61,063 nucleotides of DNA from an uncultured Candidatus Saccharibacteria bacterium (GCA_964603545.1 CAZRVD010000005.1:1-61063); one strand, 5' to 3'. Positions 1 to 55,877 are shown, counted from the first letter of the stretch. The notes: generated from the sequence alone by a model not told the origin. Translations and numbers: made by a program.

Positions 1-42
1 TTCAAGGCTGCAATCGGGGTTCGATTCCCCGTGAGGTCACCA
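1..42 (+). tRNA. 3' part of a tRNA gene cut by the window edge; isotype not determinable with confidence
   Basis: nt 15-31 form a canonical T-arm (CGGGG/TTCGATT/CCCCG). This is followed by acceptor strand TGAGGTC, discriminator A and an encoded CCA (40-42). If nt 1-3 (TTC) are the anticodon it would be tRNA-Glu, but the 5' half is outside the window. Confidence 0.7.
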
Positions 43-1720
43 TCAGGTTTTGATCGGGTACAAATCCCGAAGACAGTTCGAATACTAGCGACAATTTAGG
101 TGTTCCACTAACTATTTCTGGATAGGTGGGCATCTTCTCAAATACCAACCCAAACAGGTCCCGTAAAGAGCGCGGATCATCAGGGTTTAGTAACAATTCG
201 GCTGGGTGTTCCATTACGTATCTGGCATCTTTGATAAATGCCTTTATGTCATGCCTAGAGATCTGGATTTTATGCCGGACCCCCTGCGCTTCTTTGATTT
301 TTTTGTCACTCTCCTCGATTTCTCTCTCCAACTTTTCTCGAACAACAGCACTTTTAGTGGTCACAAGAACATCGAGTTTTGTGGCCTGCTCTGCTTCAAG
401 ATCTGCGATGTTTCGATGAATGTCACCCGAGGCTTTGACGATTTCCTTCTCACGCTGACGGTATTTATTCATAAACACCAGTTCAAGCGCATTGAGAACA
501 TCTGGCTGAAACTTCAGATTTGAGATGTACGCGTTTACAGCCTTTTCAAAATCCGCTTTCGGGATCCTGATTCCTTTGTGTTTGCGTGAGCAGTGATATG
601 CCGGGAACTTCTTTCCAGATTTACCTCGGGACGCACTCCCTAGAAATGGTTTTGAGCAACTAGGGCATAGAAGAAACTTGAATGGGTATAATGGGTTGTT
701 TCTTACCCTGACCTCGCCGGTTTTTGAAGATCTTTTTATCAACTCGAAACTTCCATCGGAGGCTTGTTTCAAAATCAATTTTCCGCGATTCGCTCTATTC
801 CAAAGATCAATGCTAACCAAGCCGTCATATTGCGCCTTGATAGGTTTGAAGTGTGTCCACAACTCACACATGACACCGGCATAGATTGGATTTTCTATGT
901 ATCTTTGAAATTGCTTTATGTTGAGGGGTTTGCCACCTCTTTTCGCGATAATCTCTGTATGTTCTTTGTTCCATCTGTTCCGGATCGGAGATTGGAAACC
1001 CATTGCATTTACTTGTGCGACACACTCCTCATCAGTTAGTCCACGAGCACGCAAGTCAAACATCGCTCGATAGAATTGTGCCCGATTCGGGTTTGGAACT
1101 TGAATAGTCTTTTTCTTTCCTTCCACGAATATCTTTTCGTTCTTGTATCCGTCGGAAGGTGAACGTGTACGATAACCCTGCTGCGCTAGCCGGATCTCTT
1201 GTCCTATCATGCGATGTAGAATCGTCGTCACTTCCTGTTTCGAAGTTGTTGCCAGCACATTTTCAGTGATCTCGCTCGGATAGAATCTACTCCAGTCGTA
1301 TTCGAAGCCGAGTTCTTCAAGAGTATTTATGGATGGCTGTATTACTCCGAGAGTATCGATCATCACCACACCGTATTTCAACAATTCCTTTTTCATTCGA
1401 TCATACTCACCGGTCCCTGCGCGAGTGAATCTGTCTATGGATTTGAATACATAATAGTTTACAAGTCCGGGATTTTCTTTTATGAAAGTGAGGACTTCTT
1501 CAAAGTCATCTCGATTAGTTTTTCGCCCTGAAATTGCACGGCCCCATACTTTCCCTTGCGGATACTCTTTTGTTTGTGGAACAATAGCCCACCCTCGGTC
1601 CAGTGCAAATCTGCGCAGACTCTCTTCCTGTCGCTCCAGACTTTCACCTTCACTCGACTGCTTGAGTGAACTGACACGACACTGCACTACGCATTTTTTA
1701 TTTTGTATTGATAAGTTCAT
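2..1720 (-). CDS. large serine recombinase (integrase), C-terminus runs off the window
   Basis: 572-aa ORF. N-terminal resolvase-type catalytic region (VVQCRVSSLKQ...ESLERQ), central recombinase region, Cys cluster CPSC...YHCSRKH (zinc-ribbon-like) and a coiled-coil-like C-terminal part. No stop codon before nt 2; the last codons overlap the tRNA 3' end. Confidence 0.85.
   Translation of the reverse strand: MNLSIQNKKCVVQCRVSSLKQSSEGESLERQEESLRRFALDRGWAIVPQTKEYPQGKVWGRAISGRKTNRDDFEEVLTFIKENPGLVNYYVFKSIDRFTRAGTGEYDRMKKELLKYGVVMIDTLGVIQPSINTLEELGFEYDWSRFYPSEITENVLATTSKQEVTTILHRMIGQEIRLAQQGYRTRSPSDGYKNEKIFVEGKKKTIQVPNPNRAQFYRAMFDLRARGLTDEECVAQVNAMGFQSPIRNRWNKEHTEIIAKRGGKPLNIKQFQRYIENPIYAGVMCELWTHFKPIKAQYDGLVSIDLWNRANRGKLILKQASDGSFELIKRSSKTGEVRVRNNPLYPFKFLLCPSCSKPFLGSASRGKSGKKFPAYHCSRKHKGIRIPKADFEKAVNAYISNLKFQPDVLNALELVFMNKYRQREKEIVKASGDIHRNIADLEAEQATKLDVLVTTKSAVVREKLEREIEESDKKIKEAQGVRHKIQISRHDIKAFIKDARYVMEHPAELLLNPDDPRSLRDLFGLVFEKMPTYPEIVSGTPKLSLVFELSSGFVPDQNLMVTSRGIEPRLQP
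18..40 (+). repeat. attL-like copy of tRNA T-loop/acceptor sequence GGTTCGATTCCCCGTGAGGTCAC
   Basis: Matches 7173-7194 except for one T indel and one C/T difference. Confidence 0.75.
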
Positions 1721-1916
1721 ATGCTTGATCGTCTTTTACATTATGCGCTTTACGATTTATTTTCTCCAGCCAGATATCAAAGTATTTATCTGCAATTCCA
1801 TCAAGCGCAATAAGCATCCGACGTAGTTGTTCATCGGTGTATTTGATTGCTGATGGTCCGAGGGATTTTTTGAATGCCTCGAACTCTGTGCCTGTTTGTT
1901 TCTTTTCCGGCTCCAT
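1698..1916 (-). CDS. small hypothetical protein upstream of and overlapping the recombinase start (possible directionality factor/regulator)
   Basis: ORF 1698..1937; start at Met-8 (MEPEKKQ...) assumed. Overlaps the recombinase start by 23 nt, suggesting one operon. No recognisable motif. Confidence 0.45.
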   Translation of the reverse strand: MEPEKKQTGTEFEAFKKSLGPSAIKYTDEQLRRMLIALDGIADKYFDIWLEKINRKAHNVKDDQAYELINTK

Positions 1917-2338
1917 GGTGGAGCGGATCCAGTACAACCAAAAAGGACCCGCGTACTTCCGTGTTGCATATCGGAAGTGATCGCGAGTCCTTTTATTTAT
2001 TCAAGAAGACTCTGGGGCCGGCGACTACGTTCATAACCCCATTTATTCAGTTGTACTCAAATTGTAGCAAGTTGGTAGTTTTCAGCAATGGCAATTTCCA
2101 CTATTTTTCGCTATCATTGAAAGACAACTGAATATCGGCCCCTTGAGGGCGGGATCTAACCCATCGGGAACAACCCGGTGGCATGATCTGGAAGTCGATC
2201 AAGCATAAAAAACCCGTCATGGGGTTGCTTGATCGCCGTATGGGGAAACCTGTACGAGAGGGTTCGCTCTCTACCCGTGGCGGGCTTTTTGTGTCTCGCC
2301 GTAGGTTTTATCAGGTTGATTAGCGATCAAGCCAACCT

Positions 2339-2767
2339 ATGAATAAAAGTAAAACTATCGTCGATAAAATAGTTCTCTGGTCACTTGTTGCATTTTGCGT
2401 TATGGGCGGAGGACTGATCCTTCTTGATAATTGGGTTGGAAGGGGCGACACACCCTCTTACACGGGCAATTTACCGCGACAGGAGGCAAAGGATGTGGTT
2501 ACTCCGGATCGTCAACAGGAGGCGGTGCGGGCAATGGCCGATTTTATGGTGAAAGACGACAATGTGATTGGACTCCGAATGTGGGCGCGATCACTTGGAA
2601 TATCTGCACCGGACTTTGCAAGCGCAGCGACACTTCGAGAGAACATCCGCCGCAACACGGACGACTTCTCACTTTATCGCGATAAAAAAGAACTCACACG
2701 CCTCGTAGAAACTCTTGCCAATCAAGACTCAATGCTTTTGGAAGTAGTGAACGAATCGATACGTTAG
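2339..2767 (+). CDS. hypothetical membrane-anchored protein (island cargo)
   Basis: 142-aa ORF with an N-terminal hydrophobic helix (IVLWSLVAFCVMGGGLILL). No recognised domain. Confidence 0.55.
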   Translation: MNKSKTIVDKIVLWSLVAFCVMGGGLILLDNWVGRGDTPSYTGNLPRQEAKDVVTPDRQQEAVRAMADFMVKDDNVIGLRMWARSLGISAPDFASAATLRENIRRNTDDFSLYRDKKELTRLVETLANQDSMLLEVVNESIR

Positions 2768-2794
2768 TCGGGTTGTTTGCAAATAACCAGAGAA

Positions 2795-5596
2795 CTAGTC
2801 TTTAGGGTGTTCATCCTCGTACTCTTGTCGTTCCTCCCGCATTTCTCGTTCGTGTTCCTGTTCTGATCTCGCAATATCTTTTGCGAGATTAGCAAGAACT
2901 TTTTCGCAAAACTTTATTATCTTTGGATTAGTCGATTTCGATTTTACATCCTCGATACGTGCTTGATTTTTTCGCATCTCGCGCGCAAAAATGTTTTCAC
3001 CGACAGCACCAGTTCCTCCACCAGTCTGACGCATTCTGGCGTCCACTCTAGCCAAGATCTGTCTGTCATCCGTAACAGCGACGATCTCAAGACAAAGTGA
3101 CGGATCCGCTGGATCAGAGATAGGCAGCATCTCCATAACCTTGAGGATATTTTCCTTCTTACCTGTGGCGATCAGGTCCGAGAGAGCGCCGCGCAACACG
3201 TCACCCCCTACGCGGTTGAAGAACTCGCCGAGGTGATAACCGATCATGCTGTCTTGTTCAGGATCTCGTTCTTCGAGCCAACGGCGAACGACGTCTTTTG
3301 TTCGTGGATCGTCGCGTATGAAAGCCGCTACGCCGGGCTCAATGTGATATGGGATTGCGTCATATCCACTATCGTACGAGTGCTTTATCCGACGCTCAAA
3401 AACTAACATCATCAGATTGAAGTCGACAACCCCAAGTGCGTGGAGAACTTGCAACTCGTTGTGGTCTAGGCGCTTTATGTTGACGAGCATCTCGGCAAGT
3501 GTCTCGAGATCTGTACGGTCCCACTCCTCAAGTTTGATCCATTTACAATGCAGAGCAAAACCAAGTTCGTGAGGATACATCGTGTCGAGTTCGGGGTACT
3601 CCTTTATTTTTTCAATCAGTGCTTTCCGAATGTCTTTATCTAGGGTCGACAAAAATGCGAGTGATCGGATCGAGTGATACTCGAGCGCACGGTTGATTTC
3701 GTCGCTCTTGAGAAACGCGAAACGACCTACTTTTCTTGCGATCTCAAGTGTGATCGCTATATCTTCCTTGCGGATTTTAGCCACAGAGAGTTCCGTGCCA
3801 CCTACAGAAAAATAAGACATGAGGATTCCATCGATCTGATCTGTAAGGTGATGTTTTGCGATGTAGTCGACGTACTCGTCCCACTGATCGAGTGAGCCTT
3901 TCCGAAGACCCCAGAGTATGCCGCGAAAAAAGAAGTACAGGCCAGTCTTGCTCGTGAGAGCATGCTTCGCAAATACTGCGGCTACTTTCGGTTTCTTTTC
4001 TGCGATTTGAGCGAGGAAATCCCGCAGAGTTTGGTAGAGCCAGTCCTCAACACAGTCGCGAAAGTTGGCTACCGCGTTGATACGCGCATACCACTCTTCG
4101 GCGTTTTTTTCAGTAATCGATTCAAGAACCTCCTTCAGTTCCTCCTCTTTTTGCTGCCGTCCCTCTTGCCACTCCATATCGCGTCGCAAACGCATCTCGT
4201 CTCCGGCAAGGAGGCTAAATAGCCGATAATCGCCCTTGTTTTCACGGATTTGTTGAAGCAACTCCTCAACGCCAGAGATCTTACGCTCTCTCGTGTTCAA
4301 AATTGATAGTTGTGTTTCTATCTCGTAGACTACCGGATAGTCGGCGATCATTTTACTTTTCGGGAAAAGTATTTTTTTGTACGCGGCAACAACATGTTCG
4401 GTGTCGGCTTCTACCATGTCCACAGATCTTTGAAGAAAATCAGGATCTCCGGTCGGCCAGTCAGTCTTATGCGTCGCGTAACCGATTGTATCCACCGTTT
4501 TGCTTTTCTCACGTATCGTATCTGCTATCTCGTATCGCTTCGTCAGGAGATCTATCGCATCGCGACGTAACTTTTTCAAGAACTTTGTCGCGTCGAGTGC
4601 CCCACGATGAAAAGTGAGCGTGTACATGTCCGTCTGCGACGTTCCATCGAAGTCGGGGCTAAATAGGTTGCGGAGCATCTCATGCGCGATCTCTGACGGG
4701 ACATCATGGCTTGTGATGAAGTCGAGCATGGCTCGGTATGGGCCGTAGCCGATCGCATTTAGCCAGTGGTAGTTATATTTTGTAGTGTTTTTCAACGCTT
4801 CCGCTGCTTTCTTTCGAACTTGCTCGCTCTCATCGGAGGCGAGTTTTGTGATGACCTCCAATGCTTCGGCCGTCTTGTCGTGAATGACCTGCTCGAGCAA
4901 CTCAATGTATGCGATTTTGACTAAAGCAGAGGTGCCACCGATCGTTCGCGCCATGTCGAGTACGATTTCAACTAGCGGGAACTCACCCTTGTTCGTTCGG
5001 TAATAAACGAGATCATGGAGAGTGCGGATTCGCTCGAGTAGAGTGTCCTCGTTGGCAGTTATGAGATTTTTCCTGACGCGCTTTTTGTATCGCAACGCGA
5101 GTCGATCGTTCGAAGTGTTCCGGTGATGCCCGCAAATACGTTTCCACTCTGCCACGTATGCGGCGGCGCCTTTTTTGATGGTGTGATTTTTGTTGAGACG
5201 AAAAGTGATCGTTTTCTTACCTGCAGAGACCTGTGCCTCGTACTGTGTCTTTACAGATTCCGGTGCTAAATACATCCAGTAAGCGACTTGCTCGTCCGGA
5301 TTCACGGCGATAAGAAATACAGGTATTGAAGATCCGTGCGCATGGCTCAAAAGATCGGTGCTACAAGTCGCAGAAAGAGAACCGTCTTTGTTTGTCTTGA
5401 GGGGTTTTATTTGCACCTTCAGCATGTTCCCACCAACCTCGTCTTGTTCGCCAAGTAGATGGACATACCCGTCGATTAGCGGAAAATCATCATCTCCTTT
5501 GGTGAGTTGCGTGAGCAGAGGGTGTGCATTCAGAAGAGTCTCCAGTACACCGATCTCTTGCTTTTCGGTTCTTTTGGCGCGACTGTATTTTGCCAT
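2795..5596 (-). CDS. 933-aa protein: N-terminal DUF4365/Mrr-like PD-(D/E)xK nuclease-like module fused to a long alpha-helical HEAT/ARM-like region
   Basis: Long uninterrupted ORF. The N-terminus LIDGYVHLLGEQDEVGGNMLKVQIKP resembles (from memory) the D...E/D...QxK core of DUF4365-type restriction-endonuclease-like domains. HEAT-like stretch ESEQVRKKAAEALKN. No P-loop seen. Confidence 0.6.
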   Translation of the reverse strand: MAKYSRAKRTEKQEIGVLETLLNAHPLLTQLTKGDDDFPLIDGYVHLLGEQDEVGGNMLKVQIKPLKTNKDGSLSATCSTDLLSHAHGSSIPVFLIAVNPDEQVAYWMYLAPESVKTQYEAQVSAGKKTITFRLNKNHTIKKGAAAYVAEWKRICGHHRNTSNDRLALRYKKRVRKNLITANEDTLLERIRTLHDLVYYRTNKGEFPLVEIVLDMARTIGGTSALVKIAYIELLEQVIHDKTAEALEVITKLASDESEQVRKKAAEALKNTTKYNYHWLNAIGYGPYRAMLDFITSHDVPSEIAHEMLRNLFSPDFDGTSQTDMYTLTFHRGALDATKFLKKLRRDAIDLLTKRYEIADTIREKSKTVDTIGYATHKTDWPTGDPDFLQRSVDMVEADTEHVVAAYKKILFPKSKMIADYPVVYEIETQLSILNTRERKISGVEELLQQIRENKGDYRLFSLLAGDEMRLRRDMEWQEGRQQKEEELKEVLESITEKNAEEWYARINAVANFRDCVEDWLYQTLRDFLAQIAEKKPKVAAVFAKHALTSKTGLYFFFRGILWGLRKGSLDQWDEYVDYIAKHHLTDQIDGILMSYFSVGGTELSVAKIRKEDIAITLEIARKVGRFAFLKSDEINRALEYHSIRSLAFLSTLDKDIRKALIEKIKEYPELDTMYPHELGFALHCKWIKLEEWDRTDLETLAEMLVNIKRLDHNELQVLHALGVVDFNLMMLVFERRIKHSYDSGYDAIPYHIEPGVAAFIRDDPRTKDVVRRWLEERDPEQDSMIGYHLGEFFNRVGGDVLRGALSDLIATGKKENILKVMEMLPISDPADPSLCLEIVAVTDDRQILARVDARMRQTGGGTGAVGENIFAREMRKNQARIEDVKSKSTNPKIIKFCEKVLANLAKDIARSEQEHEREMREERQEYEDEHPKD

Positions 5597-5654
5597 GAAT
5601 AAATCATACTCTTTTCATAAAAAATATGCTTATTTTCCAAGCCGCTTCACCTAT

Positions 5655-5683
5655 TTGACATAAACACTATAAGATGTTAGAAT
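5655..5683 (+). promoter_or_regulatory. sigma70-like promoter of GC-rich cassette 1
   Basis: TTGACA (5655-5660), 17-nt spacer, TAGAAT (5678-5683). About 80 nt upstream of the ATG at 5764. Confidence 0.55.
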
Positions 5684-5763
5684 AGCCATAGGAGTTTGTT
5701 TGGGGCTAACGCTAGGCGTTTCCCTTTGAAAGTAACCATCAACCGAAGAAAGAGAGGCACTGA

Positions 5764-6351
5764 ATGAACGCTCAACTCACGTGGGATGCGGTCCTTGCGA
5801 ACAAGGCCCTCATCGGCGGCGACATCGAGTCGCAGGAAGACGGCGTCGCTTACCGCGGCCCGATCGCGGAGATCAAGGTGGAAGGTGACTCCGTTCGCTT
5901 CAACTCGCCGTGGTGCGCCCGGATGAACCCGGACACCGGCGAGTGGGAGAAGTGGCACATCACCACCTCGTCCGTCAGCAAGAGCATGGTGCAACCGCAG
6001 GACATCGGCGACGGGAGGATCTTCTTCCAGATGCCGTTCCTCGGCGTCTGCACGATTTTCCCGAACGGCGGCAGCAAACTCGACACCCGCAAGGTGAAGG
6101 GCCTGCCGAAGGATTCGGAGCGCTTTCTCGCTCTGTTTCCGGATCTGCGCTTCGACCGCGCGATCGCCGAGAAAGTGCTCGTCGAGAAGTCGTTCTCACG
6201 GGCGGCTGAATCCTTCAAGGACAAGCCGGCCGACGCGACGCTGCAAGACTTGCTCGGCTGTTTCAAGCACGACAGCCAGGCCGAGGAGTTCCTCTGGCAC
6301 TACGTCGAAGCCGTCACCGGCGAGAAGGAAGTGCACCAGAAGGTGTACTGA
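5764..6351 (+). CDS. hypothetical protein, strongly GC-rich (cassette 1)
   Basis: 195-aa ORF with G/C-ending codons (GGC GAC ATC GAG TCG CAG...). Purine-rich AGAGAGG lies 6 nt upstream of the ATG. The high GC creates several shadow ORFs in other frames. No recognised domain. Confidence 0.7.
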   Translation: MNAQLTWDAVLANKALIGGDIESQEDGVAYRGPIAEIKVEGDSVRFNSPWCARMNPDTGEWEKWHITTSSVSKSMVQPQDIGDGRIFFQMPFLGVCTIFPNGGSKLDTRKVKGLPKDSERFLALFPDLRFDRAIAEKVLVEKSFSRAAESFKDKPADATLQDLLGCFKHDSQAEEFLWHYVEAVTGEKEVHQKVY

Positions 6352-6862
6352 TGTTGGTTGGAATGTCGTGTGATCTGGGGGTGCGTGTGGAGAAATCCGC
6401 ATGCACCTCTTTTGTTTTTCTTCTAGTAACGGCAATGGAGCGCTGATACAGAAGCAGTGTTTCTTTTTGCTCGATCTCAACTTTTGGAGTGGACTCCTCT
6501 GCAAAGAAAAGTGCCATATCCCATTTCAGTATTGAGTTTGCGGCTGCTATGCGATCCGCAAACGTCGGACCGGATTCTCCGTTGAGAATTGTGGCAAGTT
6601 TTTGCGTAATAAATCGATGTCGCTCTTTGAGACTTACCAACCTCTCTGTTCGACTTTGAGTAGAAAGTTCTTCGAGGTTTTCTATGCGGACCTTTTTCAG
6701 CAGTCTTGAGACATAGTGCCAGTCGAGTTCGCCTCGGAGTGATTGGTATCCTTGTCGATACAGAGAATTGCGAACTTGCGCCACCGACTTGAGAGGATAG
6801 AGTGCTACTTCATCGCGGATCGCTCGCTTGATCAGTTCTTCAATTTCTTTTGGCTTTCTCAT
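6314..6862 (-). CDS. hypothetical protein (island); 3' end probably altered or extended by cassette 1
   Basis: 182-aa ORF. The last ~35 codons run antisense through the cassette-1 terminator and CDS end and look non-native (low-complexity P/S/T/R tail). Confidence 0.5.
   Translation of the reverse strand: MRKPKEIEELIKRAIRDEVALYPLKSVAQVRNSLYRQGYQSLRGELDWHYVSRLLKKVRIENLEELSTQSRTERLVSLKERHRFITQKLATILNGESGPTFADRIAAANSILKWDMALFFAEESTPKVEIEQKETLLLYQRSIAVTRRKTKEVHADFSTRTPRSHDIPTNISTPSGALPSRR
6380..6420 (+). terminator. intrinsic terminator of cassette 1
   Basis: GGTGCGTG...CATGCACC stem (one G-U pair) followed by TCTTTTGTTTTTC. Confidence 0.6.
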
Positions 6863-7051
6863 GTTCGTGCTTATTCGTGGTTTTGCGCGCTCGCTACATA
6901 CAGTTCAATACCCCATAAGGTAAGATCTTTTCTAGTTTGTAAGTATGAAAAGTGGCTAAATAGCATGGGTTTCTGGTACCATTAGATAACTCGGATTGAG
7001 GGTCTGAAACACCGTTTTCCATTTCAATACTAGGTTTTCAATGGTGTTCCA

Positions 7052-7073
7052 TTCAAATCCCTCCGGGCTCACA
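7052..7073 (+). repeat. second tRNA-3'-end-like fragment inside the island right arm
   Basis: TTCAAAT-CCCTC-CGGGCTC-A looks like T-loop + T-stem 3' strand + acceptor strand. No intact tRNA can be folded around it. Confidence 0.4.
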
Positions 7074-7172
7074 TTTTTCATTTTGAAAAAAGTCTAAGGG
7101 GATCGAAGCCCGATTGAGATTTTTTAAGAACAAAGTGAATTAAAAATCCAATTGGGGTACTGACCGAGTAGC

Positions 7173-7194
7173 GGTCGATTCCCTGTGAGGTCAC
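7173..7194 (+). repeat. attR-like copy GGTCGATTCCCTGTGAGGTCAC
   Basis: Direct repeat of 18-40. Ends 5 nt before the tsaD ATG. Not followed by CCA. Confidence 0.75.
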
Positions 7195-7199
7195 ATTTA

Positions 7200-8390
7200 A
7201 TGAAAATCTTATCAATAGAAACCAGCTGCGATGAAACAGCAGTTAGTATTGTAGAGGCAACAGGTGGACTAGAATCCCCTACTTTTTCTGTACTTGGAAA
7301 CGCCATTTTTTCCCAAATTAAAACTCACACACAATATGGTGGAGTTTTCCCGATGATGGCAAAAAGAGAGCACGCAAAGAACCTTCCAAAACTCTTAAAA
7401 GTGGTTCTTGAACAAACTAAAGAATTCATATCATACGATATATCGTATGATATGAATAAGTGGCAAGAGATAGAAGATATTTTGAAGAGAGAAGATGGAT
7501 TATTTGAGGAACTTAAAAAAACTATTGAAAAAATAAAAAAACCGGATATTGATTTGATTGCAGTGACTTCAGGTCCAGGATTAGAACCAGCACTATGGGT
7601 AGGAATAAGTTTTGCAGTGGCCCTTGGAAAACTTTGGGACTTACCAGTAGTTCCTGCAAATCATATGGAAGGACACATTGCTTCTATCTTAATAAACGAA
7701 GATAAAACCCCTGTTGAATTTCCAGCTTTAGCTCTTCTTATTTCTGGAGGTCACACAGAAATTGTAGAAATAGAAAATTGGGGTAGTTACAAAATACTAG
7801 GTTCTACGGTGGATGACGCTGTTGGAGAAGCTTTTGATAAAGTGGCGAGACTTTTAGGACTTCCTTATCCAGGTGGTCCAGAAATTTCAAAGTTAGCAGA
7901 AAGAGCTCGATTAGAGGATGTTTCCAAAATAGCCAAATTTCCAAGGCCGATGATACATTCCAAAAACCTTAATTTCTCTTTTTCTGGGCTAAAAACAGCC
8001 GTTTTATACTATATTAGAGATAACTTTGAAGGAAAAACTGAGAATATAAGTGAGAACGAAAAAGCAGACATTGCTCGTGAGTTTGAAGACTCTGTTGTGG
8101 AAGTTCTAGTCCACAAAGTTGAAACTGTTTTAGAAAGCAATAACATTAGAACTCTTATTGTAGCTGGAGGAGTTATTGCTAACAAAAAAATTAGAGAAGC
8201 TTTTGCGGAACTTGCAAATAAATTTGAAGGACTCACTTTAAAAACCCCAACAAAAGAGTTATCCACAGACAACAGTATTATGATTGCCTGCGCCACATAC
8301 ATAAAAACCTTAGTATTTCCTGAATTAATTTCAAAAAATAATAAAATAATTGCGGAAGGAAATTTGAAATTAAAATATGAAATGTTATAA
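7200..8390 (+). CDS. tsaD: tRNA N6-adenosine threonylcarbamoyltransferase TsaD (Kae1/Gcp family)
   Basis: MKILSIETSCDETAVSIVE, HMEGH and VAGGVIANKK motifs. Start taken at ATG 7200 rather than the GTG at 7185, which lies inside the att repeat. Contains a ~50-aa insertion relative to typical TsaD. Confidence 0.9.
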   Translation: MKILSIETSCDETAVSIVEATGGLESPTFSVLGNAIFSQIKTHTQYGGVFPMMAKREHAKNLPKLLKVVLEQTKEFISYDISYDMNKWQEIEDILKREDGLFEELKKTIEKIKKPDIDLIAVTSGPGLEPALWVGISFAVALGKLWDLPVVPANHMEGHIASILINEDKTPVEFPALALLISGGHTEIVEIENWGSYKILGSTVDDAVGEAFDKVARLLGLPYPGGPEISKLAERARLEDVSKIAKFPRPMIHSKNLNFSFSGLKTAVLYYIRDNFEGKTENISENEKADIAREFEDSVVEVLVHKVETVLESNNIRTLIVAGGVIANKKIREAFAELANKFEGLTLKTPTKELSTDNSIMIACATYIKTLVFPELISKNNKIIAEGNLKLKYEML

Positions 8391-8405
8391 TATAGCTGGA
8401 GGTAC

Positions 8406-8446
8406 AAAAAGGAAAAGACCCGCACAATGTGGGTCTTTTCCTTTTT
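8406..8446. terminator. bidirectional intrinsic terminator between tsaD and the surface-protein gene
   Basis: GGAAAAGACCC...GGGTCTTTTCC stem flanked by an A-run and a T-run. Confidence 0.7.
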
Positions 8447-8461
8447 ACTATCCTTTTTAGT

Positions 8462-11400
8462 TTATTCTAGGTCTATTTGTTTATTTATCTCTTCTATTTT
8501 TTTGTTGTTCCAATATTCTCTATACCAGAGATACGAAACCAAAATAATAACTAGTATCAGAATGATGTTTAACCAGCCCAATCCAAGATAAGTATTAGGA
8601 CACTGTAAAGAATCGTCTACAGAAGATTTAAATGGCCAACCAAGTAAACCTAGTAAGTAGTTCGCGAATTTCTTTCCAGAAGCTATCACGTTAGCTGTCA
8701 GTCCAGAAACAAAACTCTGAGTTGTAGATGAATACCCAGCTAAAGTCCCCTGTAGACCATTGGTTCCAGTTGAATCATCACTTCCTACCTGCCCATCTAT
8801 TATTGGATTAGAAGGATTAGAAGGATTTACTGGAGTTATACCACCGTCTGGTAACAGAATTCCAGAATCTCGGAGTCCTTGTAGGAAGTTTCTATATGTA
8901 TCAATCTCTGTTTGCTGCCCAGGTGTTACTGGAAAAGCCATTCTACAATATATTTCGTTTACTTTCTTTTTAGTAAGGATGTATGTGTAAGAAGTAGCTT
9001 CTGTGTGTCCCCATGGAGTTAAAATATCTGATTTGTATCTTTCTTGGAAAGCGTCTAACGCAACTATTGTTTGATCATCATAGATACCAGTAATTTGTAC
9101 GTTACTGTATCCTTCTAAATCTCTCAAAAATACCTGAAGCTTTTTAACTTCTACGGGATTATTGTTGAAATCTTTTCTTAAGTAGTCGTATAAGTAGTAA
9201 CAACTATTTGGAATTTCTACCGGCTGTTGAACAAGTGGTCCACCACTAGAGGTTAGTGAGCCAACTATAGGACCGTTTCCACCCCCACCACCTCCACCAC
9301 CACCTCCGCCACCGCAATTAGAAGTACAAGGTGCTGGGTTTACATTCAAATCTACAGAGGACGTATTGTTTGTTGCTACTGGGTCCGCCTGAGTAGATGA
9401 GGCAATAGCTGTGTTTGTTATTTTTTGTCCTTCTGTGCCAGCGTTTACAGTTGCAACAATTGTTAAGGTTGTTGTGGCATTATTATTAGATAAGATTCCT
9501 ATTGTCCAAATACCAGTTGTTGTAGAGAAACTACCAACAGTAGACGTGCTTGATACAAGAGTTAATGTATTTGGAAGTAAATCAGTTAGAGTCACAGCTG
9601 GGGCATCATTTGGTCCCTTATTTAGTAAACTTATTATATAAGTTATCGTATCCCCAACGCTGGCAGTAGTTTTGTCAGATGTCTTTGTAACTTGCAAATC
9701 AGAAGATGGGTCTCCACCACCGCCCGCAGTAACAGTAATTACCAAAGTCTCTGAATCAAAACCGCAAGTATTTACGGCATTTAGTTCTACGTTATAAGTT
9801 CCTGCTACTGTTGGTACCCCACTCAATACGCTTGTAGTGGTTGCATAAGATAGCCAAGCAGGAAGTGTAGTTGTTCCTACTGACAAAATCACATCTGTTG
9901 TGGAACTAGCAGTAAGTGTATACGAAAATTGATTCCCCGCTACAACGCTAAGAGACAAAGGCGAAGTGATTGTAGGAAGTAAACATTGCTCTTCAGGATT
10001 GTATGTACTTAGCAACACAACAGTTCTTTCTCTCCTGTTCTCTGTCAAAGAAACACTTCCGTCAGAGTTCATACCACCAGCGGTACTTTTATACAAAAAC
10101 AAGTCAAAAATATTGTTTACTGGTTGAGTAGATTGATCATTATATTTAGCAACATTCCACGCTAGTCCATTAATAGCAAGTTCTGAATATTTATAATTAC
10201 CTAACTCTAGATTAGAAAAAGTTACACAATCTGCATCATTTACAGATGAAGATATTATTTTTGAATTAGGTAGAAATGCAGACGAAGTCCAAGTCTTAGA
10301 ATTAATAGTTGTGGAAGCAAAACTTGTTGAAGTTGCTAAGTTAATAGAGAAGGAACCGTTAGGTAGTGCGTACGATGATGTGGCTATTACATTCTGAGTA
10401 TCAGCAACCATCATACAGAAAGTTATCTTTCCTTTTAGTGTTGGTTCTACCTCAAGGACATTTACTGTCCTTGAAACCTGAGTTGCCTTTAATCCTTGTG
10501 AGTCGCTTACGTTATAAGTAACAACGTAACTTCCAGGAATACTTGTGTTGACAGTACTTGAAGCAACAATATTTGCTGTAATGTCTCCATCTTCCTGATC
10601 AAGAGCCGTTGCTCCAGGGTCAATATAAGTATTTCCAACATTCACACTTGCGGGGTTTGCTCCTATGAGTGTAATGACTGGTGGATGATTTTCTTCTTCT
10701 ATGTTCTCGCAAGATGTTACTGTTACTTGAACAACAACATCATTATAATCTTTGTCTGAAATAGCTAAGGCTAGATTTTCAAAAGCAAGCACGTATGAAC
10801 CAGTGTTAGATTCTGAACCAGCAGAATCTAACACATCGTATGAAACCATATGATCATTATCCCCTTCATTTAATGAATTCTCTGATGCTTGAAGATTATT
10901 CAAGGCGCCGTTTTGCACAGCAAAGCCGTAATCTCCATCTGGTAGTGTTACTGTATAAATTTGGCCAGGAGTTGCTGTTGCAACATTAGGATAAGCTTCA
11001 TTTGGACCACTTCCAGATTTAAACAGTGGCACAAAGGTATTTAACTCACCCTTTTTGTAATATCCAAATATATCCCCCGCAGCTGAATAGCCAGCAATAA
11101 ACTTAATTTGTACTGTTGTAGATTCTTTAGTTGTACTCCATACTTGATACTCTTTTTGAGGAGAAACGGAAAGTCCAGCAGTATTGATTATGTTCTCCAA
11201 GGTAGGTTCTGGACTTGTTCCAAAAACAACATGGTCCACATCTCCCAAAGTATCTGGAACGAGACATTGATTTTCTACAGGTTCTTCCTCTGGGACATTC
11301 CAAGCAACACAATGATATGTTTTACCCGCAACTGTTGGTACCAACCAATCATAGTTATCATAATGTAAAACGTCAGTATCGCAGTATAGTTCTGCGGATA

Positions 11401-16362: not shown

Positions 16363-16490
16363 TGTGCCGAGACCCAGGGTTGGTCACAGGTTTTGAGTTC
16401 ACCGTCGTTCACTCAAACCTGCGACCCCGCCTCACGTTTTATTTCTGCTGAAATAAAAACCGTTCCGGCTTTCGACCCCGGGCTTAAAAG
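16363..16490 (-). repeat. structured repeat copy A (tRNA-Phe trailer) ending in an 18-nt duplicate of the tRNA-Phe 3' end
   Basis: 16363-16380 is identical to 16542-16559 (TGTGCCGAGACCCAGGGT). Core read on the minus strand: GAGGCGGGGTCGC-hairpin-GTGACCA (16430->16381). Confidence 0.7.
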
Positions 16491-16516
16491 CTTTGCTTTT
16501 ATTCTCGTCAACTAAT

Positions 16517-16541
16517 AATACTCCTTACGGAGTATTTTTAT
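16517..16541. terminator. hairpin plus T/A runs just 3' of tRNA-Phe
   Basis: AATACTCC-TTAC-GGAGTATT flanked by T-rich (plus strand) and A/T-rich (minus strand) tracts. Confidence 0.5.
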
Positions 16542-16543
16542 TG

Positions 16544-16616
16544 TGCCGAGACCCAGGGTCGAACTGGGGACCTATTCCTCTTCAGGGAAGCGCTCTACCA
16601 ACTGAGCTATCTCGGC
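16544..16616 (-). tRNA. tRNA-Phe (anticodon GAA), no encoded CCA
   Basis: Minus-strand fold: GCCGAGA TA GCTC AGTTGGTA GAGC G CTTCC CTGAAGA GGAAT AGGTC CCCAG TTCGACC CTGGG TCTCGGC A (73 nt). Confidence 0.92.
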
Positions 16617-55646: not shown

Positions 55647-55753
55647 ATCTTTTTTTAGACCCCGCAGACCTGAAGCTTGGTTCTGTCAACGACTTGAGTG
55701 AAACGAAAGCTCATTGACAGATTCAGGTCGAGGACTAAGTGAACTCTCCGCAG

Positions 55754-55785
55754 GTGAGATTGGATTGGGACCCAATCGCAAGACC
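55754..55785 (+). repeat. module F: GTGAG-hairpin-CGCAAGACC shared with tRNA-Phe leader repeat B
   Basis: GTGAGATTGGATTGGGACCCAATCGCAAGACC here, versus minus-strand 16740->16709 GTGAGTTTGGGTTGGGACCCAAACGCAAGACC. Confidence 0.65.
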
Positions 55786-55877
55786 TTGAACATTTTGTAA
55801 TCAAAATGTGAAAGGTGTACTGCTCCTGTAAGGAGAGAGTGAACGGTCTTAAAAAGATATGCGGGAGAAAGAGATTT

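Follow-up and report, generated by a model that had tools for sequence, protein, structure and literature searches.

The window analysed here is the whole of contig C5, 61,063 nt long, from an assembly of an uncultured Candidatus Saccharibacteria bacterium (GCA_964603545.1; 672 kb in 12 contigs, GC ~0.37). Its first 7.2 kb lie between the 3' part of a tRNA-Glu(UUC) gene and tsaD, the first gene of the backbone, and are probably composite: an island at about 43–7073, with a gene for a large serine recombinase (LSR) at its left edge, and a separate, pre-existing structured module at 7075–7194, whose last part copies the tRNA 3' end. A sequence-only reading had taken the two tRNA-like copies as the ends of one 7.2-kb element. 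The sequence features that it listed are all present (both copies of the repeat, CCA on the left one only, and a 5-nt gap to the tsaD ATG), but comparison with related islands places the right end of the island at 7073/7074, well short of the second copy.

The tRNA-Glu(UUC) part of the window (1–42, +) includes the anticodon TTC (1–3), the T-arm (15–31), the acceptor 3' strand (32–38), the discriminator A (39) and an encoded CCA (40–42). Positions 1–40 are identical, at 40 of 40, to the tRNA-Glu(TTC) of the closest relative (L002). Because the contig begins inside this gene, its 5' half is missing and ARAGORN makes no tRNA call at the window start; a search of the rest of the assembly for a second Glu-TTC gene or a tRNA-Glu 5' half found neither. 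Several other contigs of this assembly are also broken in tRNAs, with overlaps of 55 nt between neighbors. The left copy of the repeat (18–40, GGTTCGATTCCCCGTGAGGTCAC) has its counterpart at 7173–7194 (GGTCGATTCCCTGTGAGGTCAC). As an ungapped 20-mer, 21–40 recurs at 7175–7194 with one mismatch and at no other window site with two or fewer, and none of 100 dinucleotide shuffles gave two matches to it. The right-hand copy as a whole runs from the T-loop to the 3' end, without CCA (7171–7194, +), and is followed by 5 nt (ATTTA) and then by the tsaD ATG at 7200 (tsaD, 7200–8390, +; Pfam TsaD, E = 9.1e-79).

Orthologues of tsaD were found in 38 of the 41 genomes searched, and tRNA-Glu(TTC) lies near tsaD in 10 of 11 relatives' loci scanned. 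It ends just 2–21 nt before the tsaD start in four of the ten, with tRNA-Val(GAC) or other sequence between them in the others. Since the native tRNA-Glu end is near tsaD in relatives, the right copy occupies the native 3'-end position. The earlier suggestion that it is the displaced native end agrees with its position. The absence of CCA, which had been likened to tRNA-Phe and tRNA-Arg of the window, is indeed shared with both of them; only six of the 34 tRNAs in the genome encode CCA, and none of ten tRNA-Glu(TTC) genes of relatives in the genus does so.

The boundaries of the island were established by comparison with two closely related islands that have long flanks, L020 (91% LSR protein identity) and L062 (85%, on a metagenome contig). 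In both, host GC is 0.53–0.57 and island GC 0.41–0.51. They match the window from 12 to 2337/2343, a region including the recombinase gene, a 79-aa open reading frame (ORF) and an RNA, and again at the right end, where 6438–7073 matches L020 at 79% and 6777–7073 matches L062 at 90%. The middle cargo differs among the three islands. The conserved right end (P arm, 6984–7073, +) consists of 90 nt which are nearly identical in all three and end in GGGCTCACA. Past 7073 all three diverge, and each continues with host-like sequence, beginning with a hairpin. At the left junction, the attL crossover zone (36–44, unstranded), all three have a tRNA ending in ...GGTCACCA, followed by TCAGGTTTT (in the window, the island's TCAGG...). 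The tRNA bodies, including the acceptor 3' strand, vary by host, and this strand matches the host's own 5' strand wherever the 5' end has been assembled (L018, L019, L020, L062). Because similarity to L020 and L062 stops exactly at 7073/7074, the island is taken as ~43–7073 (7,031 bp), with its right end 97 nt before the repeat. Base composition follows the same division: GC is 0.477 in 43–7074, against 0.344 in 7075–7170 and 0.359 in the backbone (7195–61063), which bears out the earlier observation of a less AT-rich interior.

The recombinase gene (2–1720, −) encodes 572 aa with Pfam Resolvase and Recombinase domains. It had been described as tail-to-tail with the tRNA; the size and family stand, while the geometry is that of a 41-nt antisense overlap (2–42), not merely of adjacent 3' ends. 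The last 13 codons (VTSRGIEPRLQP) and the stop are antisense to the tRNA, the stop being the complement of UCA in the anticodon loop. Hidden Markov model searches, proposed at the same time as a check, were positive for both domains. Resolvase (PF00239) is matched at E = 3.9e-10 and in 14 of 14 aligned homologues; Recombinase (PF07508) at E = 3.4e-4, with 21.3 bits vs. a cut-off of 21.1, and in 12 of the 14 (best E = 1.1e-7). For the zinc ribbon PF13408 there is no match in the 572-aa protein at E ≤ 0.01, but six of the 14 homologues have one (best E = 0.0011). Residues R15, S17, Q21, C352, C355, H376 and C377 are invariant in the homologue alignment, and S17 is presumably the nucleophilic serine. 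A Protein Data Bank search with the single sequence gave no match; a profile was needed, and that of the 14 homologues matches the catalytic domain of TP901-1 integrase (3bvp, E = 3.1e-13). The NCBIfam model XisF scores 27 bits, vs. a cut-off of 375. This LSR is the one Resolvase-domain gene in the genome, which also has one tyrosine recombinase; the only Phage_integrase match is on contig C2, outside the island.

The association with tRNA genes extends to the rest of the clade. Besides the window, 34 homologue loci were compared, four from a search of the family, three from genome records, 18 from a phylum sample of 401 genomes, and nine from metagenome contigs. In 29 of these the LSR ORF runs with its 3' end into a convergent tRNA, overlapping it by 22–90 nt. 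The adjacent tRNAs are mostly for Glu (19), with three for Gln, two for Arg, and one each for Lys, Ser, Gly, Phe and Trp. Of these 29 tRNAs, 24 encode CCA, vs. 6 of 15 other tRNAs of the same loci (classified by hand). A tRNA target for this recombinase is strongly supported. Homologues are found in 17 of the 401 phylum genomes, including this one, and the clade in just 4 of 63 genomes of the family; in 40 other genomes of the genus there is no homologue at E ≤ 1e-10. The distribution supports a sporadic, horizontally acquired insertion and agrees with the original view of an acquired LSR island tied to the 3' end of a tRNA gene. A relatively distant recombinase (45% identity) is encoded on a viral contig (L101, IMGVR_UViG_3300042286_000458), which is uniformly AT-rich and lacks a tRNA within 6 kb; the sequence underlying the C-terminal tail is loosely like an antisense tRNA 3' end when judged by eye. 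This could represent a related element in its free form.

A mechanism can be proposed from these comparisons. The LSR would insert the island at the very tip of the tRNA-Glu(UUC) 3' end, at the CCA or immediately before it, so that the tRNA body stays wholly host-derived and a long target repeat is not made. The recombinase gene lies at the left edge of the island, taking its last 13 codons, in the integrated state, from the antisense strand of the tRNA. The clade is spread through the phylum, and its members nearly always show this geometry at a tRNA, most often tRNA-Glu. The island junctions share only the letters CA or CAC, and the crossover dinucleotide would be within CACCA/CACA. By eye, 14 of the last ~21 letters at the right end are shared with the tRNA-Glu 3' end, a likeness expected of two half-sites bound by the same protein. 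A far-end repeat of the tRNA (a 14-mer from its last 40 nt, with at most one mismatch, anywhere in the 9–20 kb of sequence beyond the tRNA) was found in none of 13 related LSR-tRNA loci, which argues against crossover deep in the tRNA for the clade. This result and the few letters shared by the junctions are consistent with attP × attB recombination at a 2-bp crossover that leaves no long target duplication. A T-loop crossover by this recombinase, as first proposed, is unlikely. In the three-way comparison the island sequence common to all begins after CCA. The unease expressed at the same time over long identity blocks with a serine recombinase was justified. That module, of ~120 nt, would already have been present between tRNA-Glu and tsaD before the island arrived. 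Modules of this kind follow many tRNA genes, and the 5S rRNA gene, in this genome and its relatives, and each closes by repeating the 3' end of whichever RNA gene precedes it.

The module body (7075–7170, +) contains hairpins P2, P4, P5 and P6 and the 5' strand of helix P3, and is backbone-like in GC. It shares an exact word (19/19 nt) with the module after tRNA-Val(GAC) in one relative, G020. In four relatives tRNA-Val(GAC) is followed by ~120–170 nt and then by a copy of its own 3' end, and 7075–7194 aligns with the modules after tRNA-Val(GAC) in three relatives as well as with modules of this genome after tRNA-Val(TAC), tRNA-Leu(GAG), where the copy is degenerate, and tRNA-Gln(CTG). The pattern of an insert and a 3'-end copy is seen in this genome after tRNA-Thr(TGT), Val(TAC), Ser(TGA), Phe(GAA) (in the window), Leu(TAG) and Gln(CTG). 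Module homologues also follow tRNAs in genomes without this recombinase. The core motif is present in 33 of 41 genus genomes, with none in a reversed control. In a sample of 31 copies, 10 are within 400 nt behind a tRNA, half of these (5/10) carrying at least 11 nt of that tRNA's end, and 21 are not next to a tRNA. No Rfam family matched the module at E ≤ 1, whether in the window or in seven other genome regions (module copies or flanking tRNA genes), and no earlier report of the module was found within a limited literature collection.

Seven units, including 7075–7194, can be aligned and have a common predicted fold of 28 pairs. On this fold 93.1% of cells pair, vs. 76.1 ± 2.0 in shuffles and at most 57% when the partners are slid. 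Half of the pairs (14/28) change on both sides, which is compensatory; none of 500 shuffles reaches 14, and slid controls give no more than six. In the outer helices the 3' strand is supplied by the tRNA-end copy, which pairs with an upstream stretch resembling the 5' strands of the tRNA's own T-stem and acceptor. Overall the unit resembles a second, degenerate tRNA 3' domain whose T-loop holds ~50–70 nt of inserted sequence (counted from the alignment).

Other copies and variants of the module show a range of arrangements. At tRNA-Val(TAC) (G000 C4:45220–45495, L025) there are two identical 138-nt units in tandem, each closing with a copy of the tRNA 3' end. Within the window, behind tRNA-Phe (16543–16616), ~150 nt with hairpins (16364–16542, −) close with 16 nt that exactly repeat the tRNA-Phe 3' end; this is another sequence type, common to the module behind tRNA-Thr on C1. 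Behind a 5S rRNA gene (G000 C10:4035–4300, −; L031), part of the gene's 3' domain is repeated, interrupted by ~200 nt that bear the core motif, as judged by eye. Copies of the core motif (GGTGTACTG with a hairpin) that are not beside a tRNA are found at 55700–55850 (+) in the window and at C2:23400–23600 and C7:4180–4400 (−) of the same genome (G000), two of the three sharing a further upstream stretch which looks structured. The C2 and C7 regions have no Rfam match, nor does 55700–55850, which was scanned at the gathering threshold only. The host sequence just past the islands in L020 and L062 resembles a second module type (by eye).

Three other explanations of the locus were weighed. In the first, the module at 7075–7194 would be the shrunken, cis-mobilisable remnant of an older element with T-loop crossover, which supplied a new tRNA 3' end, and the LSR island would have come later, at the regenerated end. 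This is unlikely, with several points in its favor. A tRNA followed by a short insert and a 3'-end copy is the classic signature of a tDNA island, in the part of the Islander paper available (PMC4383910); the copy beside tsaD is at the ancestral position of the tRNA end; the full tRNA-Val before the module has CCA in two relatives, and the copy behind it does not; and the two units at tRNA-Val(TAC) are identical and in tandem. However, modules with homologous cores carry terminal copies of different RNAs (Glu, Val, Leu, Gln and 5S rRNA), so that the copy follows the neighboring gene and does not travel with the element. Pairing is kept up by compensatory change in four helices, which would not be expected of a decaying remnant. 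The supply of recombinases, one tyrosine and one serine for the whole genome, and the 21 of 31 sampled core-motif copies that are away from tRNAs also speak against it.

The second is the original proposal of one 7.2-kb element (~20–7174) between the tRNA-like copies, with a crossover in or near the T-loop, a new 3' end with CCA supplied by the element, and the native end displaced to the side of tsaD. The repeat is real and non-random, only its left copy has CCA in a genus where none of ten tRNA-Glu(TTC) genes encodes it, and there is a precedent, at least in the portion available of the work on Dehalococcoides ssrA islands (PMC3146451), with the serine recombinase DsiB, an att repeat in the gene and an inferred T-loop insertion. 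It is nevertheless very doubtful here. Similarity to L020 and L062 ends 97 nt short of the repeat, and the stretch in between (7075–7170) is backbone-like in GC and homologous to modules at tRNAs in genomes without the recombinase. None of the 13 related loci has a far-end repeat, and the acceptor 3' strand of the left copy, which the element would have brought with it, is host-specific and matches the host's own 5' strand where this is assembled. The Islander signature is an island bounded by a regenerated tDNA and a displaced 3' fragment; here the island ends at 7073 and the fragment (7171–7194) is in a separate module.

The third, that assembly or binning joined an island from another organism via shared tRNA-like sequence, finds some encouragement in a contig which begins in a tRNA, in the many contigs of the assembly that break in tRNAs and in the unlike GC of island and backbone, but is scarcely credible given a 20-nt repeat shorter than the 55-nt assembler overlaps and a single unitig that spans the island end, the module and the tsaD start. 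This unitig (6673–7452, depth 10.4) is from run X1, the probable source, which holds 98% of sampled words; two other runs of the same study and X2, from unrelated sediment, were also found, all as contigs and hence blind to rare forms. The depth of the unitig is close to that of the island unitigs (9.3–10.3) and of the flanking backbone (8.1, with 6.4 in another backbone unitig), so a chimeric origin can be dismissed for the junction of island, module and tsaD. Over 1–9000 of the window, the island unitigs in X1 (9.3–10.4) are somewhat deeper than the adjoining backbone (8.1 and 6.4); GC bias, a second host or extra copies are possible reasons. The sole joint across the island in any of the runs goes from 36 to 7196, with 11 other letters between, at a depth of 51.9. 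It comes from a different, more abundant organism, the tsaD of which matches only in pieces. X2 holds 151-nt pieces of the island with 0–1 differences, and a module-like piece in another context. The predicted junction of the free form had no match in viral contigs.

A composite of island and older module remains the probable reading, and several points weigh against it or against parts of it. With the 5' half unassembled, an intact tRNA-Glu gene has to be presumed. Five of the 34 homologue loci have no tRNA call: in L068 the locus is cut by the contig end, with an antisense tRNA-Glu visible by eye; L049 has a partial match; and in L016, L022 and L038 there is no tRNA within 400 nt. Among the run contigs, which cannot show rare forms, there is neither a circular junction nor an empty site of the same strain. 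Two reconstructions of the free form fit equally well. One has the recombinase ORF ending at the junction itself, 13 codons short of its integrated length; the other lets the ORF continue for 38 different codons, and the element would then itself supply the CCA, a possibility that agrees with the 0/10 CCA count in the genus. The pairing test for the module is lenient because the fold was derived from the same seven-sequence alignment. Finally, T-loop crossover by an enzyme of this kind is not impossible, because of the Dehalococcoides ssrA islands, as far as these are described in the available part of PMC3146451.

The remainder of the island can be divided into the module conserved between islands and variable cargo. 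The 79-aa ORF (1698–1937, −), in the conserved part, overlaps the recombinase start and has no family match; a directionality factor or regulator would be a guess. Divergent from the recombinase is a LOOT RNA (Rfam RF03000; 2153–2272, +), with 72.1 bits vs. a gathering threshold of 46.4, covering model positions 1–121 of 121. Next come a 142-aa ORF (2339–2767, +) with a hydrophobic N-terminus (by eye) and no family match, and a 933-aa protein (2795–5596, −) with an N-terminal DUF4365 domain, which is restriction-endonuclease-like (E = 3.4e-9), and HEAT repeats (HEAT_2 at E = 1.7e-5, under its cut-off). The PADLOC model Aga_REase-PNTD1-PNTD2 matches this protein at E = 3.1e-8, over residues 41–140 only. 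A 195-aa ORF (5764–6351, +), without a family match, is in the most GC-rich stretch (0.52–0.57), and a 182-aa ORF (6314–6862, −) at the right end is partly conserved in related islands and has a weak PADLOC RmrA match (E = 0.001). No replication genes were recognised in the island.

The LOOT RNA is near the recombinase in five of seven closer loci (L018, L020, L021, L022 and L062) and in none of seven more distant ones. A role as a partner specific to this recombinase was considered and rejected, as it is present in 32 of 63 family genomes, vs. 4 of 63 for the recombinase clade. Its settings are those of mobile elements: besides its place next to this recombinase, among ten other LOOT loci (L102–L111) two adjoin a different large serine recombinase and two a ParB-methylase fusion. 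In three contigs the LOOT RNA is 146–147 nt from the contig start.

Two other places in the genome (G000) have features in common with the left end of the window. On contig C1 (151256–152100, L029), a tRNA-Glu(CTC) gene that encodes CCA is overlapped in antisense by a 194-aa GC-rich ORF (local GC 0.51), a geometry like that of the recombinase island. As a decayed copy of the recombinase this ORF is a candidate at most: BLASTP gave nothing significant and blastx against 27 homologues nothing at all, and its only Pfam match is to Zn_ribbon_recom, at E = 0.055. At the beginning of contig C6 (1–113) a class II tRNA is present by its 3' end only, which encodes CCA and lies one base before tRNA-Val(GAC). 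In relatives tRNA-Val(GAC) neighbors tRNA-Glu(TTC) and tsaD; at C6 this neighborhood seems to be rearranged or broken by the assembly.

The island LSR is like known LSRs (TP901-1, phiC31, Bxb1, CcrB and XisF types) in its Resolvase and Recombinase domains and its R-x-S...Q and CxxC...HC residues, and in a gene placed at the element edge by the attachment site, with no long target repeat and a far half-site only loosely target-like. It is unlike them in targeting a tRNA 3' end, in an ORF which runs 13 codons into the antisense tRNA, and in being remote from solved structures. Serine integrases were not known to target tRNA or tmRNA genes according to the Islander study of 2015, in the part of it available (PMC4383910). 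Full-text searching of a limited collection gave no later account of serine recombinases that form a clade on tRNA genes. The locus is superficially identical to the tyrosine-integrase islands with the Islander signature, having a tRNA, an integrase island and a tRNA 3' fragment in order, but the integrase is of the serine family and the fragment is 97 nt past the island end, in another element.

Two further systems are parallel, the Dehalococcoides ssrA islands being the closest precedent. In these, as described in the portion available of McMurdie et al. (2011; PMC3146451), a CcrB-like serine recombinase is at attL, the att repeat is inside the gene, a 20-bp repeat bounds the island, and insertion in the T-loop is inferred. 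Like the island here, those with DsiB have a serine recombinase (~540 aa) on the reverse strand at attL with the att site in the gene end, a target in the 3' part of a tRNA-like stable RNA gene, and cargo that varies behind an integration module that is conserved; tandem arrays, in which some units have no recombinase, are a further likeness (PMC3146451, same portion). They differ in the tmRNA target, the 20-bp direct repeat, the T-loop insertion, a small serine recombinase (DsiA), and ParB and Mom-like genes, whereas here no repeat bounds the island (0/13 related loci) and the genome has a single Resolvase-domain gene. The other parallel is with the tycheposons of Prochlorococcus, of which 27 of 937 carry a large serine recombinase in place of a tyrosine one, in the text available (10.1101/2020.12.28.424599). 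These too are small cargo islands at tRNA genes, in arrays with partial tRNAs and degenerate remnants. They are from a different phylum, and that text does not give the integration place of the elements with serine recombinases.

A joint reading of the locus is possible, if tentative. The LSR would belong to a phylum-wide clade specialised on tRNA 3' ends, in which integration and excision swap C-terminal residues of the enzyme, as a possible switch of directionality or stability. The module would be a new structured element, either an RNA- or hairpin-guided mobile unit, entering terminal loops of stable-RNA genes while regenerating them without a dedicated recombinase, or an RNA-processing module; in both cases it would mimic a classic tRNA island. 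Because a separate repeated module gives the same signature, a tRNA with a downstream copy of its 3' end is no proof of island boundaries here. For two unexplained RNA-like elements there are leads open to testing: the module itself, and the link of LOOT RNA with mobile elements. Serine integrases are preferred tools for one-way DNA insertion, and a clade with conserved, universal targets would offer candidate landing sites where the organism is difficult to engineer. The near-identical integration modules in hosts of GC 0.37 and 0.55 document gene flow across the phylum, between members that are very different. By the textbook rule, tRNA genes are targeted by tyrosine integrases; the rule would become wider with a whole clade of serine recombinases that is anchored at tRNA 3' ends in bacteria with small genomes.

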